Positions 25,783 through 55,571 of a stretch of DNA of 64,000 nucleotides are shown piece after piece (the first letter of the stretch is position 1; every line of letters begins with the position of its first letter). The position numbers and the translations under genes are program-made. Source of the DNA: Octopus vulgaris (lineage: Eukaryota). The stretch lies in contig OX597816.1 of NCBI GenBank assembly GCA_951406725.2, positions 74,648,001 to 74,712,000 on the forward strand, in the 5' to 3' direction. The notes under the pieces were generated by a model. The model was not told where the DNA came from. It made no database searches and saw only the letters and a list, made by a program, of their open reading frames with translations.

Positions 25783-25832
25783 CTTGACCGACGAGCTAGG
25801 CTCCTGTAAGGACCCTGAGAAATTTTATCAGG
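25783..25832 (+). ncRNA. Hammerhead-like motif (CCGACGA core) in palindromic insert 25691-25838
   Basis: Helix I cttga/tcagg; core CCGACGA; helix II tagg/cctg + tcc/gga; GAAA-TTT-TA (decayed helix III). Confidence 0.45.
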
Positions 25833-25972
25833 CTGTTAAGAAGAAGAAGAAGAAGAAGAAGAAGAAGAAGAAGAAGAAGAAGAAGAAGAAGAAGAAGAAG
25901 AAGAAGAAGAAGAAGAACAACAACAACAACAACAACAACAACAACAATTAGTTATTTCGTTGTTCACCACCT

Positions 25973-26100
25973 GAAAGTAAACATCGCTCCCTGACGAGAT
26001 CCGGACTTAATGTGGGATATTTTACGTCCAACATTGGTTGAATGCTGATGACGGAAACCTAATGGCTGGATTGAAACATATGTAGGATTATGTTTATTTC
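25973..26100 (+). ncRNA. Type-I hammerhead ribozyme motif with extended helix II
   Basis: CTGACGA 25991-25997; helix II gatccgg/ctggatt; GAAA-C-ATAT-GT-A; helix I tcc/gga plus gaaa(g)taaacat/atgtttatttc. Confidence 0.75.
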
Positions 26101-26540
26101 TTTTGTTGATTCGCTTCCTTTACATCCTGAATCTTATATGTATTACTTTTGCCATCGTAATTCAAATAAAATTAACCAAGTATCCACAATATTTCTTCTC
26201 TACTTTGCCTTTCATCCTTTCGGGAGGCGATAAATTAAGTATCAGTGAAATTCTGGGGACGATGTAATCAACTAGTCCCCTCCCCCAAAACTTAAGGCCT
26301 TGTGCCTATAATAGAAAGGATATACTTACACAAATGCTTTTATGTATTCAAGTGTAAGTCTTTGCATGTGTGTCAGTTTTAGATCATCTAATCACTGATA
26401 TTGATGTATATATATATATATATATATATATATATATATATATATATATATATATATTATTAATAGTAGAGAATATAAAATTCCAAACTTACAGGGAAAA
26501 ATTCAATTTAGCAATACTAAATCAAATTTCACAATATATA

Positions 26541-26824
26541 ATATATGTATATGATTAAGAAAAAAACCCTTAAGTAATTCATTTGATAGGGAAAGATATT
26601 ATCTAAATTAAATCATATAGAAAGAATTTAAATATATTATGATAAATATTATTCTAAAAATCACTAAATTAAATAAACATTTAATTTAGTAATTTAGTGA
26701 TTTTTAGAATAAGATTTTTTATAATATATTTTAATTCTTTCTATATGATTTAATTTAGATAATATCTTTCCCGATCAAATGAATTACTTAATAGAGGTTT
26801 TTTCTCTTAATTCTATACATATAT
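26541..26824. repeat. AT-rich fold-back palindrome near (TA)n
   Basis: ~135-bp arms, e.g. gggaaagatattatctaaattaaatcatatagaaagaatt / aattctttctatatgatttaatttagataatatctttccc. Confidence 0.85.
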
Positions 26825-26899
26825 AATTTATGTGTATAATCCTCGTATTGATTTATATATATAATTCATATTCATTTTTATAAATAAATGACACTCTTT

Positions 26900-27180
26900 C
26901 AGTTACGACGACGGATATTCCAGCCATGAAATTAACGTGTAAGTGGCTGAGCACTTCACAAATAGGCGTCCCCTTAACGTAGCTATAAGAGAGATTCAGC
27001 GTGACACAGAATGTGACAAGGCTGGCCCTTTGAATTACTGTTACAACTCGTTTTTGTCAGCTTTGTGGGCTGGAGCAATGTGGAATAAAGTGTCTTGCTC
27101 AAGGACACAAAGTAACACCAGGAATTGAACCCACGATCGTAAGATCGCGAGACGAATAGCCTAACTACTAAGGCATGCGC
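26900..27180 (-). mobile_element. SINE (C/D-related tRNA head)
   Basis: Head gcgcatgccttagtagttagg and B box ggttcaattcc on minus strand; cttgagcaagacact core. Confidence 0.65.
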
Positions 27181-27558
27181 TTTTACAATATGTGTATGTG
27201 TGTATAAGTATATGTATATATATATAAGACCATATATTCGCATACACACAGCTACACACATACGCACAAATATAATACGAACATACATATATATGTACGT
27301 ACGATTCATATATATGCATGTGTGTGTAATTTTATGTATGTGTACGTGAATACAATCGTGTGCGTTACTTAACTTACGTAAATACATCTATGTATGTATG
27401 TATGTATGTATGTATGTATGTATGTATGTATGTATGTATGTATGTATGTATGTATGTATGTATGTATATATGTATGTATGTATGTATGTGTGTGTATGTA
27501 TGTATATATACATACATACATACATACATGTGTATGCATGTATGAATATATATATATA

Positions 27559-28380
27559 CACCGGGTGCAATGGGTAAATTGTTGCCATTTTATATTTTTA
27601 ATTTCGAGTATGCGCATTGATTGATTTGATTTCATCGACTACACAGTATAGTAGGATCAGCAGGGCACTGTCTGTGAGAAAAACAGTACTATGACACAAT
27701 TTACTCTGCTAGAAATTTGGAAACGACATACTATACTGCTTAGCATTCGTACCGGAAGCTCCAATACAAACATTGTTTGGGTGTCAATCTGAGGACAGTA
27801 CAATCAGAGGACATATACCGAGAGTGATAAAAAATCAAACATCCAGTCAACATCATGGTGTTTGAAGTGATCACTAGTGATGGTGATGTTATGTCTCCAT
27901 TCATTTACCCATACGTCCTCAGACTCAACACGGAGGCCTACATCAGGTGCCTGGAGGAGATAGTGCTGCCTTGAGTCAAGAGGGAGGCTGCCGGAAGACC
28001 CTATGTATGGCAACAGGACTCTGCACCAAGCCACACAAGCAGAATAACCAAATCATGGCTGTCAGACAATTTCTGCGACCACACCACCCCAAACAGCTTG
28101 CCACCTAACTCCCCAGACTGCAACCCCCTTGATTATTATGTGTGGGGTGCAGTTGAGTGAGAGACCAACAAAACTCCTTATAACACCAAACATGAACTGA
28201 AGGCAACGATTATGGCAGCATCCACCAACTTAAAAATGGAGACCGAGTTGCAAGTGATCCCGAAGACGTCTGGAGACTGTCGTTGAAGTCAATGGCGATT
28301 ATATTGAATAAATTTACTCTTAAATATTTCAAGATATTTTTTGCGTAATTTTGGTAAATATATCTGTTAAAATGAGATGT
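27559..28380 (+). mobile_element. Tc1/mariner DD37D (maT-like) transposon remnant
   Basis: YVWQQDSAPSHTSRITKSWLSDNF..PPNSPDCNPLDYYVWG with 37 residues between the Ds; in-frame stops. Confidence 0.85.
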
Positions 28381-28568
28381 CAATATTATATGTAGGTGTA
28401 TATATATATATATGTATATATATGTATATATATATGTATGTATATATATATATATATATATATATATATATATATATATATATATATATATATATATATA
28501 TATATATATATATATATATATGCAAGTCAGTAAATTGTAGGATTGTGTTAACCGCACCTGGAGAAATG

Positions 28569-53197: not shown

Positions 53198-53367
53198 CAT
53201 GAAACCACCTCAATTCTGGGAAGAGGGTATTTTCAAGTTAAAGGAAAGATGGAGATGCATTGTGCAACAAAATGGTTCATACTTGGTTGATTAAAAATGT
53301 AATGGCAAGTATTTATTGACCTTTTTCTTTCCTTTAAAAATCGGCACGAACTTTCCGGACAAACCAA
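53198..53367 (+). mobile_element. 3' fragment of the same mariner as 46116-46681
   Basis: Near identical to ~46512-46681 incl. TIR. Confidence 0.9.
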
Positions 53368-53919
53368 TAATTCCATGAAATATTCACGGGTCCCGCTACT
53401 TTAAATTCATTCTTTCTACTATAGGTACGAGGTCTGAAACTTTGGGGAAGAGGGCTAGTCGCTTACATCAACCCCAATGCCCCATCTACCTCGAAAGAAC
53501 GAAAAACAAAGTTGGCCTCGGTGGCATTTGAACCAGAACATAAAATCAGAAAAAATGCTACTTAGCTTTTTGCCCAGCGTGCAAACAATTCACCAGCTCG
53601 CCGCCGATATTAATTTGATATTAATATATTTAGATGAGAGTAATATATATTTTAATTGACCCTAAAGAGGATAATAAATAAGTTAGCATCGAGATTTGAA
53701 CTTAAACAAAATATAGTAGTTAAAGTACAGCAAGTCATGCGAGGTAATGAAAAAAGATATATCGTTGGTCGACTTGCTTTAAAAATAGCAGCTAAGTTTC
53801 CTTCATATTACAATCTACCGTATCATATAAGAACAGGTTTCATTTGATAATATAGCCTGTATATGTCTGAAAAAAAAACGAGACGGTCACGAATGGTATT
53901 TTTTATTATATTTTTTATA

Positions 53920-54190
53920 CGCCTTTTTCAAGCCTAGCCAGGCTCATAGGCCCGGTTTCCCGGTTTCTGTGGCGTATGTGTTCCCCGCCAGTCCATCGCA
54001 GCGTTACTCAAGAAACAGGAAAAGAGAGTGAGAGAAAGTTGGAATGAAAGAGTACAACAGGGGTCGCCACCACCCCTGTCGGAGCCTCGTGGAGCTTTAG
54101 ATGTTTTTTTTCAATAAACACACACTACGCCCGGTCTGGGAATTGAAACCGCGAGTCCGCTGCCCCTACCACTGAGCCATTGCGCCTCCA
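53920..54190 (-). mobile_element. SINE family C
   Basis: Reverse complement of 1833-2130. Confidence 0.85.
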
Positions 54191-54202
54191 CAAATAAATG
54201 CA

Positions 54203-54431
54203 CCCTTTTAAAGCCTAGCCAGGCTCATGGGCCCGGTTTCCCGGTTTCAATGGCATATGGGATCCCCAGCCGAATGGGACGCCAGTCCATTGCAGCGTTA
54301 CTCATTTTTGCCAGCAACGTGAAATGAAGTGTTTTGCTCAAGAACACAATGCGTCGCCCGGTCCAGGAATCGAAACCACAATCTTACGATCATGATGCTG
54401 ACACCCTAACCACTAAGCCACGCGCCTCCAC
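54203..54431 (-). mobile_element. SINE with C-type 3' tail and a different tRNA head
   Basis: Tail agcctagccaggctcatgggcccgg; head tggaggcgcgtggcttagtggttaggg on minus strand. Confidence 0.75.
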
Positions 54432-54600
54432 TATTCACGGGTGGTATACCTTTTCTAAAAGCTTGCTTGGTTAATGCTGACCTGAAGCTAAACAAGACTC
54501 TGGTCCGACTATCCAAATTATTCTGGCAATCTGCTCCCTTCCCCTCACATATATCTATTAATATTGAATTAATTTTCTTTCTTTTATTTTTCTTATTCTA

Positions 54601-54755
54601 AGGTGGCGAACTGGCAGAATCGTTAACAACCGTTAGTAATTCTTAGAGGCATTCCATCCGTCTTTACGTTCTGAGTTCAAATTCCGCCGGAGTCGACTTT
54701 GCCCTTCATCCTTTGGGGGCAACAGTTAAGCACAGGAATCGATGTAATCGACTTA
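54601..54755 (+). mobile_element. SINE family B
   Basis: ggtggcgaactggcagaatcg..gagttcaaattccgcc. Confidence 0.75.
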
Positions 54756-54859
54756 CTTCGTTAAAATAAATAAATATATATATATATATAAATAAATATA
54801 TATATATATATATATATATATATATATATATATATATATATATATATATATATATATAT

Positions 54860-55571
54860 AAAAATAAAAAATAAATATAAGAGAATGGTCACTGTGGCTC
54901 ATTCTAGCACTAGAAAATCCAAAAGGTTTCAACCACAAAAATACATGTTTCCTATGAAAGTCAGTACGATTGTTAGCTCACACGAACAGGGCAAATAAAA
55001 AATAACAAAAATACAGTGACGCATATTTGCCATTTGAATATGGCTAACCCCTAAGGGTGGATGCTACTGTAGTTTGTAGCCCCAGGAAGATACCTCCTCC
55101 AGCTGGCTATAGACACACTTTCTGTGCCCTATCAGTATTTGTGAAGGGAAGTCATCCTTCCTGTCTTCAACTTATGATACACACGGATTCGAGTTTCAAG
55201 GTATTTACCTATCATCGGCGTGTGACAATCATAGTTATCGACGAGAATTCAGTTTCCCTCACAAACACATATACTTTTTCCAGTGTCGATTGACACTGAT
55301 ATTGAAAAATTGAAATCAATGATAAATCTCAGAGCGAATTATAAACAGTAGCGGTAACACATCGTGACGCATATTTGCCATTTGAATATGGCTAACCCCT
55401 AAGGGTGGATGCTACTGTAGTTTGTAGCTACTGTAGTTTGTGGCAAATATGCGTCCTGGGGCTACAAACTACAGTAGCATCCACCCTTAGGGGTTAGCCA
55501 TATTTAAATGGCAAATATGCGTCACGATGTGTTACCGCTACTGTTTATAACTCGCTCTGAGATTTATCATT
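54860..55571. mobile_element. Penelope-like pLTR/retrozyme-like element with direct and inverted repeats between (TA)n
   Basis: Direct repeat 55016/55364 (348-nt period); inverted arms 55318-55428 and 55460-55571; internal hammerhead motif. Confidence 0.7.
55180..55224 (-). ncRNA. Minimal hammerhead motif (CCGATGA core)
   Basis: Minus strand: cacacg-CCGATGA-t-agg taaata cct-t-GAAA-CTCGAA-TC-cgtgtg. Confidence 0.65.

Follow-up and report, generated by a model that had tools for sequence, protein, structure and literature searches.

The 64,000-nucleotide stretch of Octopus vulgaris DNA analysed here (the window) carries CCGANGA cores within type I hammerhead folds at four of four sites in a descriptor scan (S1 to S4), each with C instead of the U of CUGANGA at position 4. 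We favour, with a probability of roughly 0.6, a reading in which S1 to S4 are type I folds belonging to likely Penelope-type repeats whose master elements likely carried C4, a tolerated change predicted to slow self-cleavage but not to abolish it. This reading builds on what was observed directly in the window, namely the folds, their C at position 4 and the architecture of the repeats, and on a coral-type Penelope-like element (PLE) that has an intact ORF and a C4 master. What is likely new is U4C in animal Penelope-type repeats; U4C itself is already known from viroids and viral surveys, which limits the surprise.

Type I hammerhead folds with C at position 4

The four CCGANGA cores reported by the first-pass annotation are all present (Table 1), in folds that are unrelated to one another. 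The catalytic letters C3, G5, A6, G8, A9, G12, A13, A14, A15.1-U16.1 and H17 are found at every site, and the three helices follow in type I order under a strict descriptor at S2 to S4 and under a relaxed descriptor only at S1. The strict descriptor comprises helix I and helix II of at least 4 bp each, GAAA, a palindromic helix III and NUH; S1 fails it and is matched once a 1-bp helix III and an extra G plus C.A at the helix II foot are allowed. C4 matches to the strict descriptor numbered 0 in 200 local dinucleotide shuffles, the relaxed descriptor matched 4/4 sites against a shuffle mean of 0.003 (score of at least 22), and compact helix II folds scoring at least 20 gave 4 matches against 0.007 per shuffle, all of these odds being generous because the descriptors were designed after S1 to S4 were known. 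Folded as monomers, the sites have ordinary energies (z +0.17 to -1.5), and the hammerhead is absent among the 150 best of 222 Rfam matches, those being microsatellite-driven miRNA matches only.

Table 1 Hammerhead folds and the repeats that hold them in the window
Feature	Positions	Strand	Details
Inverted repeat holding S1	25692..25838		arms 82% identical; flanked by trinucleotide tails
S1, degenerate type I hammerhead fold	25783..25832	+	C4 core 25788-25794; relaxed descriptor only
S2, minimal type I hammerhead	34491..34542	+	C4 core 34495-34501; strict descriptor
U4 hammerhead-like fold	34672..34752	-	core 34749; 4-bp helix II foot, long insert; score 20
Very high-copy repeat carrying S3	35625..35829	-	about 200 nt; flanked by microsatellites
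S3, minimal type I hammerhead	35724..35758	-	C4 core 35754-35748; strict descriptor
Retrozyme-like element carrying S4	55016..55428	-	41% GC; 348-nt unit with an identical 65-nt direct repeat
S4, canonical-type type I hammerhead	55174..55232	-	C4 core 55218-55212; strict descriptor
Inverted truncated copy of S4 element	55454..55571	+	followed by (TA)n; 1 difference in 72 nt, 2 in 111 nt
TA-flanked palindrome, U4 hammerhead-like fold in each arm	55698..55953		cores 55816 (-) and 55835 (+)

The closest known relatives are the min-HHRs in the pseudo-LTRs of metazoan PLEs, with the consensus CUGANGAH and a G10.1-C11.1 pair (Cervera and de la Pena 2014, PMC4209133). The window folds resemble them in being type I, in the extra nucleotide between 9 and 10.1, the short helix I and the palindromic helix III for dimer cleavage, and in occurring as scattered single copies and opposite-strand pairs; they differ in C4 and, at S1, S2 and S4, in lacking the G-C foot. 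Irregular helix II feet had also been claimed, and this description holds. The extra nucleotide is an A in S3, followed by the only G10.1-C11.1 pair, and a G in S1, followed by C.A. S2 has A.A or, in an alternative and ambiguous reading, a G-U pair flanked on either side by one additional A, and S4 has U.U in place of the extra nucleotide. Helix III is palindromic over 8 bp in S2 and 4 bp in S3, partially so in S4 and not in S1; distal helix I is absent in S2 and S3.

Every compact fold in the window (4/4) has C4, and 0 compact U4 folds survive the palindrome check. The U3-A8 core variant does not occur within the window, and at the positions covered, which include A13 and A14 in the window, none of the other core changes gave rise to a family. 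U4 matches at 22831 and 22886 were rejected as by-products of a foldback element.

Carrier repeats and the probable inheritance of C4

S1 combines helix I CUUGA/UCAGG and an 8-pair helix II with a helix III block that forms no self-duplex, and its predicted cut falls after UUA (25827). The minus arm of its hairpin holds a fifth CCGACGA (25727-25721), omitted by the first-pass annotation, together with GAAACTTGTA and a deletion of 15 nt of helix II; C4 thus stands in both arms. S1 is degenerate and was seen as a single occurrence. S2, which sits in a high-copy repeat, pairs helix I GUCU/AGAC and a 7-bp helix II with the helix III palindrome ACAGCUGU, whose self-duplex reaches -12.5 kcal/mol; the predicted cut lies after GUA (34538). 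The neighbouring U4 fold, likewise omitted earlier, contains GAAACAGCTGTA as in S2 and is convergent with it.

S3 has a 4-bp helix II, an ACGU palindrome and a predicted cut after GUU (35728), and its helix II/III build is that of the coral-type PLE hammerhead. The summed contig depth of its repeat reaches 3-5 million in X1/X2, with loose ends at 35649-35651 and 35828. We infer that the repeat is a Penelope pseudo-LTR fragment, with no ORF at the locus. Comparisons through chance translations of the repeat, meant to read position 4, yielded nothing at 25-81 aa, no scoring match at 82-2000 aa and no cluster representative. Part of the S3-family contigs bypass the core entirely (joint 35698-35763).

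S4 has a helix I of 6 bp, an internal loop and 5 bp, a 4-bp helix II and a predicted cut after AUC (55186). As a circle, its element is strongly self-paired (-105.7 kcal/mol, z -5.4 against 100 shuffles), and it is short, low in GC and non-coding, as are non-LTR retrozymes. Animal retrozymes (Cervera and de la Pena 2020, PMC7229834; Li et al. 2026, preprint 10.64898/2026.07.22.740005) share with it a unit of about 300 nt, GC below 45%, a self-paired circle, a 6-bp helix I with internal loop and a 4-bp helix II. Whereas such retrozymes consist of units in tandem that bear two or more hammerheads, the S4 locus holds 1.2 units and one hammerhead, and it further differs in C4, the U.U foot and an inverted truncated copy, a PLE-type feature (PMC8557442). 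The duplicated parts of the element are 98-100% identical. Retrozyme-type motifs in G001 ending in GAAACAGCTGTC or near it carry U4 in 16/16 cases. The nearby TA-flanked palindrome, with long helix II folds and the palindrome ACAAUUGU, was also omitted by the first-pass annotation and is a U4 counter-example whose ribozyme status is uncertain.

The octopus C4 looks inherited from master elements. Among the 40 best-supported contig differences, all with a top share of at least 0.84, none falls at 34496 or 35753, and private changes adjoining the S2 core (34485/34486) reach 98-99%. The difference table holds 181 further rows, and its ranking by share is our interpretation, so that T4 may still be the octopus majority below about 84%, which bounds the family consensus indirectly. 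S3 is most exposed to this doubt, as the private change there reaches only 76-84%. The 12 raw reads of run X22 that could be placed are uninformative on either core. Together with the two arms of S1 and the S4 duplicates, the contig differences form the indirect octopus support for the earlier proposal of a maintained variant, which is further strengthened by the family-level C4 in the coral-type PLE.

That proposal had leaned on the CpG created by the change. As CpG decay acts on copies, C4 must reside in the master, and family A holds 29 C4 copies against 2 T4 and 4 A5 copies. This part of the argument stands; it speaks for inheritance only, and selection for C is not demonstrated. The 64-kb window contains no PLE ORF match, and the PLE origin of its repeats is therefore argued by architecture.

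C4 in a coral-type Penelope family

A coral-type Penelope family in G001 carries C4 at 27 of 30 loci, alongside U4 sister subfamilies. Its intact 775-aa ORF, with RT and GIY-YIG Pfam matches that both lie slightly below curated cut-offs, ends 100 nt before the C4 core, and other copies of the carrier match the ORF-bearing copy at up to 100% identity. Across G001, pyrimidine-4 matches outnumber purine-4 matches 62 to 1, and two of nine multi-copy families have C4. Changes at positions 3, 5, 6, 8, 9 or 12 are confined to stray or decayed copies and do not exceed reversed controls. C4 matches at C164 and C408 were rejected, as they lie inside a long ORF.

Host-like metagenome motifs show C4 in 42/125, counted after removal of 4 of 129 matches as GC-rich chance matches. 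C4 accompanies one flank type in 36/38 motifs, compared with 6/87 for the others, and position 4 changes 6 times on a tree built with that position masked, against 32.7 when shuffled. Three viral scans gave 5 GC-rich matches (no helix I of at least 3 bp), 121 matches (none with both helices) and 0 matches.

These observations run against the lineage-specific dialect that had been suggested for the octopus: C4 also defines one subfamily within a PLE hammerhead whose U4 form is the Acropora digitifera row (Fig. S3, PMC4209133), and it is known in viroids and viral surveys. The fixation of C4 in the coral-type family thus points to a likely tolerated variant and not to an octopus invention. U4 stands in 44/44 rows examined from PMC4209133, whose supplement has two instances of CCGA, neither within a core. 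Our literature coverage, which is incomplete, contained no report of C4 in animal Penelope elements.

Interpretation and known core variants

Natural U4C lowers activity while the viroid stays infectious (cited in Perreault 2011, PMC3088659), and U4C and U10.1.U11.1 each retain partial activity, as described in the same source. U4C hammerheads of viroids, viruses and phages share with ours an identical single core change, reported as tolerated; they often have stabilising tertiary contacts, whereas here C4 is likely the master letter of animal retroelements with minimal helices. A CYGANGA descriptor has been used (PMC13481778). Among phage escape mutants a U4 change occurred in 0/50 (PMC4075628), and in a saturation study every U-turn change had low activity (PMC9901934); the eLife supplement gives no U4C value. 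The U3-A8 hammerheads of Schistosoma PLEs (PMC4209133) are likewise a family-level core variant missed by the standard descriptor, but involve a compensated base pair, whereas U4C replaces one letter of the uridine turn.

We postulate that U4C arose several times in separate families, position 4 probably being the only place in the core where another letter is usable. Cleavage would be slow and would take place in dimers joined through the palindromic helix III, perhaps depending on the protein of the element; protein assistance is described for one PLE hammerhead (PMC11167929). If PLE mobilisation needs little cleavage, C4 and weak helix II feet may have been carried along, and the new CpG would decay both ways after insertion to give scattered T4 and A5 copies.

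With G10.1-C11.1 missing from three of the four folds, distal helix I missing from S2 and S3, and low activity in U-turn mutants, the copies may not cut at all. C4 hammerheads could then be catalytically dead, their fold shape being recognised by a PLE protein or RNP and mobilised without cutting, a reading that takes up the RT-recognition fold suggested by the first-pass annotation and that we consider rather improbable. It would fit the Anolis PLE, where catalytic mutants had no effect on insertion in vitro and no RNA-seq ends fell at the cut site (PMC11167929), the Naiad PLEs, which spread without canonical hammerheads (PMC8557442) and whose supplement lacks the octopus motifs, the 10.1-11.1 mismatch paired with C4 in S1, S2 and S4, and the carriage of C4 by an intact young family. 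The retained catalytic letters and NUH site, together with the lack of any other family-forming core change at the positions tested, form instead a pattern of catalytic constraint, and the partial activity of each single variant also speaks for cutting. Unlikely, too, is that C4 has no function and drifted in a few masters of non-autonomous repeats that no longer needed the hammerhead and were passively amplified. T>C is a frequent transition, the window carriers are fragments without an ORF and some S3-family contigs skip the core; drift should, however, have changed other core letters, which did not happen at the tested positions, and the coral-type carrier is autonomous, with copies as close as identity to the ORF-bearing one.

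That octopods favour C4 as a dialect of their own, compensated for example by the altered helix II foot or by a host or element protein, seems very unlikely to us. The exclusively C4 compact folds of the window, set against the two of nine families in G001, and the foot mismatch in three of four folds would suit it, but a single 64-kb window that also holds U4 folds with long helix II is a narrow base, and S3 and the coral-type family combine C4 with a regular G-C foot, so that C4 and the altered foot are not tied. We give hardly any credence to four independent private mutations in U4 families, or to chance folds. The bounded octopus consensus and the weakness of S1 leave some room for them; the shuffle controls, the near-fixed private neighbours of S2 next to an unlisted 34496, and the implausibility of four identical private changes without any other core change speak against both. 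A wider version of the favoured reading, which we offer tentatively, is that the Penelope elements and retrozymes of animals contain an extensive C4 class that has escaped notice, prevailing among compact octopod hammerheads and fixed in active coral PLEs. Its members would be tuned-down or protein-gated cutters that keep part of the RNA uncut, and CUGANGA-only surveys would have missed whole high-copy families.

As the animal hammerhead surveys considered here use CUGANGA, families with a C4 master would drop out or appear only as CpG-decayed T4 copies, and hammerhead counts in octopods and corals may be underestimates. C4 also bears on whether PLE hammerheads need to cut. Since the coral-type sister subfamilies differ at position 4 and one has an intact ORF, cleavage and mobilisation can be compared directly between them. 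Their helix I medians are -5.5 kcal/mol for the C4 subfamily and -2.3 for U4, a lead only, as the contrast reflects a single evolutionary event and depends on the sequence window used.

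C at hammerhead core position 4 in the octopus window

The four CCGANGA heptamers claimed by the first-pass annotation, with C instead of U (T in DNA) at core position 4 (C4), are all present where it placed them, and the feet of helix II carry the mismatches and extra purines that it described. S2, S3 and S4 satisfy a strict type I descriptor with no C4 match in 200 shuffles, and S1 too satisfies a relaxed descriptor (shuffle mean 0.003 at score ≥22), the descriptors having been drawn up after the sites were known. Restricted to a compact helix II, the window holds 4 C4 matches against a shuffle mean of 0.007, one U4 and one G12-variant match, both from a foldback element, and no match in any of the other nine core-variant classes. 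Hammerhead matches at 22831 and 22886 are false, produced by the self-complementarity of this element. The observation of four C4 hammerhead folds is real.

Repeats and folds in the window
Feature	Position	Strand	Description
S1	25788	+	C4 fold, single arm of a hairpin
S2	34495	+	C4 fold, helix II of 7 bp
S3	35754	-	C4 fold, textbook minimal hammerhead
S4	55218	-	C4 fold within a 348-nt unit
U4 hammerhead-like fold	34672-34752	-	47-nt insert in helix II; faces S2; has GAAACAGCTGTA in common with S2
Palindrome with TA flanks	55698-55953	both	long-helix-II U4 fold in each arm
Foldback element	22754-23053		presumably MITE-like, by shape
LINE 3' fragment	25505-25636	-	PVVIGALG-type end, within trinucleotide repeats
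LINE 3' fragment	38847-39164	+	PVVIGALG-type end, within trinucleotide repeats
C-terminal helicase fragment	52512-52787	+	weak UvrD_C_2 and Herpes_Helicase matches
Acidic reading frame	7138-7425	+	resembles the N-terminus of a piggyBac transposase
Non-autonomous element	57683-58070		presumably Helitron-like, by shape; hairpin and CTAG at end

S3 consists of an extra A, G10.1-C11.1, a helix II of 4 bp, an ACGU palindrome and a GUU site, while the palindromic helix III of S2 self-pairs across 8 bp. Both lie within short high-copy repeats; in sequencing runs X1 and X2, summed contig depth, which does not equal copy number, is 3-5 million at S3, 0.3-1.3 million at S2 and 10^3-10^4 in the majority of bins that separate the two. 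At 35698-35763, joints in some contigs of the S3 family omit the hammerhead core and helix II, so core-less copies exist. Helix I of S4 starts with 6 bp and continues beyond an internal loop for 5 further bp. The S4 element contains a direct repeat whose 65 nt are identical, and it is accompanied by a truncated copy in inverted orientation and by a (TA)n flank, a build shared with retrozymes (PMC7229834) and with insertions of Penelope-like elements (PLEs; PMC8557442), and its unit folded as a circle reaches a z of -5.4. The arm opposite S1 contains CCGACGA and a better helix III and has lost helix II. Because no PLE ORF was found across the window, the PLE link of the octopus copies is one that we infer.

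Also present, though absent from the first-pass annotation, are U4 folds in which helix II is long (34749, minus strand; 55816, minus, and 55835, plus). Depth marks the fold facing S2 as a repeat separate from and rarer than that of S2. The palindrome resembles split-core cases described for Naiad PLEs, with no counterpart found in searches of that paper's supplement (PMC8557442).

Probable inheritance of C4 in octopus and coral-type families

The interval 34440-35830 was compared with three contig sets carrying three organism labels and with one raw-read run. The 40 differences listed (181 further) have a top share of at least 0.84 throughout, in a table that appears ordered by share. At 34485 and 34486, ten bases off the S2 core, another letter makes up 98-99% of depth in all three contig sets. 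Neither 34496 C>T (S2 position 4) nor 35753 G>A (S3 position 4) is among these 40 differences; had the C4 of S2 arisen privately in one copy of a family otherwise fixed for U4, 34496 C>T would have appeared there. The bound on T4 is weaker for S3, since a private change at 35711 reads only 76-84%. Duplicated parts of the S4 element differ at 0/65, 1/72 and 2/111 sites, and their sequences point to a young insertion that would have carried C4 in. Both arms of the S1 hairpin, 82% alike, have C4. In the octopus repeats C4 is probably inherited rather than private, with the T4 shares only bounded.

A pattern modelled on S3 that allowed either pyrimidine at position 4 matched at least 120 metagenome stretches. 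Four of at least 129 matches were GC-rich chance matches and were removed before counting, leaving, among the matches listed, 125 (83 U4 and 42 C4). Their U4 form equals the Acropora digitifera PLE row in Fig. S3 of Cervera (PMC4209133), hence the label coral-type. Among the matches listed, C4 is tied to one downstream flank (36/38 versus 6/87 with others), requires 6 changes when mapped on a tree for which position 4 was masked, versus 32.7 with labels shuffled, and occurs in 6 motifs that follow closely where a GIY-YIG frame ends, as do 8 U4 motifs. At one locus in binned animal DNA, an open frame of 775 aa that matches RVT_1 (E 1.9e-6) and GIY-YIG (E 2.6e-4) ends 100 nt upstream of a C4 core. 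C4 occurs in 27 of the best 30 of 47 copies found by DNA similarity, the query itself being C4, and in 27/30 distinct matches in animal DNA within metagenome bin G001 and two other binned genomes. By hand count, 32/62 matches in G001 are C4: its coral-type family A has 29 C and 2 T at position 4, a second C4 family has 3/3 C, and seven further multi-copy families are U4 throughout. These families count against the lineage-specific hammerhead dialect suggested by the first-pass annotation; C4 is not an octopus dialect, and is a recurrent letter at family level in at least two animal lineages.

G001 is a 12-Mb species-representative 'bacterium' MAG containing much animal DNA, including a kinesin exon, several PLE ORFs and at least nine multi-copy hammerhead families; some animal DNA is also present in the two other MAGs. 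Two near-identical open frames of more than 940 aa in G001 (contigs C164 and C408) start signal-peptide-like and may represent a retroelement gene of envelope-like type; the C4 match inside them is chance. In the coral-type C4 subfamily, distal helix I has one pair more than in its U4 sister, a possible compensation seen as one event only.

U4C is known in viroids (PMC3088659), and a 2026 viral survey has it built in as CYGANGA (PMC13481778); C4 here is a variant of an already known hammerhead type. All 44 rows examined in Fig. S3 of Cervera are U4, from which S1-S4 differ (PMC4209133). In the literature covered we found no animal PLE or retrozyme family reported to have C4 as its consensus letter; such families may be described in Lunse et al. 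2017, which deals with small variants of the PLE hammerhead, or in the PMC7229834 supplement, both outside this scope.

Core constraint and cleavage

A purine at position 4 was found in a single G001 match, a decayed family A copy. Changes at core positions 3, 5, 6, 8, 9 and 12 gave 12, 6, 2, 3, 2 and 7 matches there, no more than the reversed-pattern controls gave, and those that can be recognised are strays from known families. Family A contains 4 A5 copies alongside its 2 T4 copies, as expected of CpG decay from a C4 master. In the data covered, a single window plus a partial data set for one host, U4C is the sole single core change seen fixed in a family.

The C4 folds are most likely weakened hammerheads that would either cleave at a slow rate in dimeric form or need the protein of their element to cleave. 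U4C lowers in vitro activity but permits viroid infectivity, and U10.1.U11.1 is found naturally (Perreault et al., PMC3088659). None of 50 phage escape mutants changed U4, which their author linked to the known C variation (PMC4075628). Minimal type I hammerheads of PLEs are slow even when U4 (PMC4209133), and the PLE hammerhead of Anolis requires protein and is dispensable for in vitro insertion (PMC11167929). Two points count against weakened cutters: a saturation study measured low activity for every U-turn change (PMC9901934), and three of the four folds have a second defect besides C4. The main rival to slow cleavage is that the C4 folds are catalytically dead and kept for recognition.

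Other repeats in the window

GC content is 28-42% per 2-kb bin, in animal DNA rich in microsatellites, and CpG observed/expected is 0.80. The plus-strand LINE fragment shares 77-94% identity with proteins of Octopus bimaculoides; other matches listed, among them those to other animals, are at most 66% identical, except one at 80% labelled Escherichia coli, so that an octopod source is the most likely. Both LINE fragments resemble many O. bimaculoides gene models, which look like predictions derived from repeats. The helicase fragment is probably a Pif1-type remnant of a Helitron. The Helitron-like element shares a 56-nt match of 77% with the S4 element's direct repeat.
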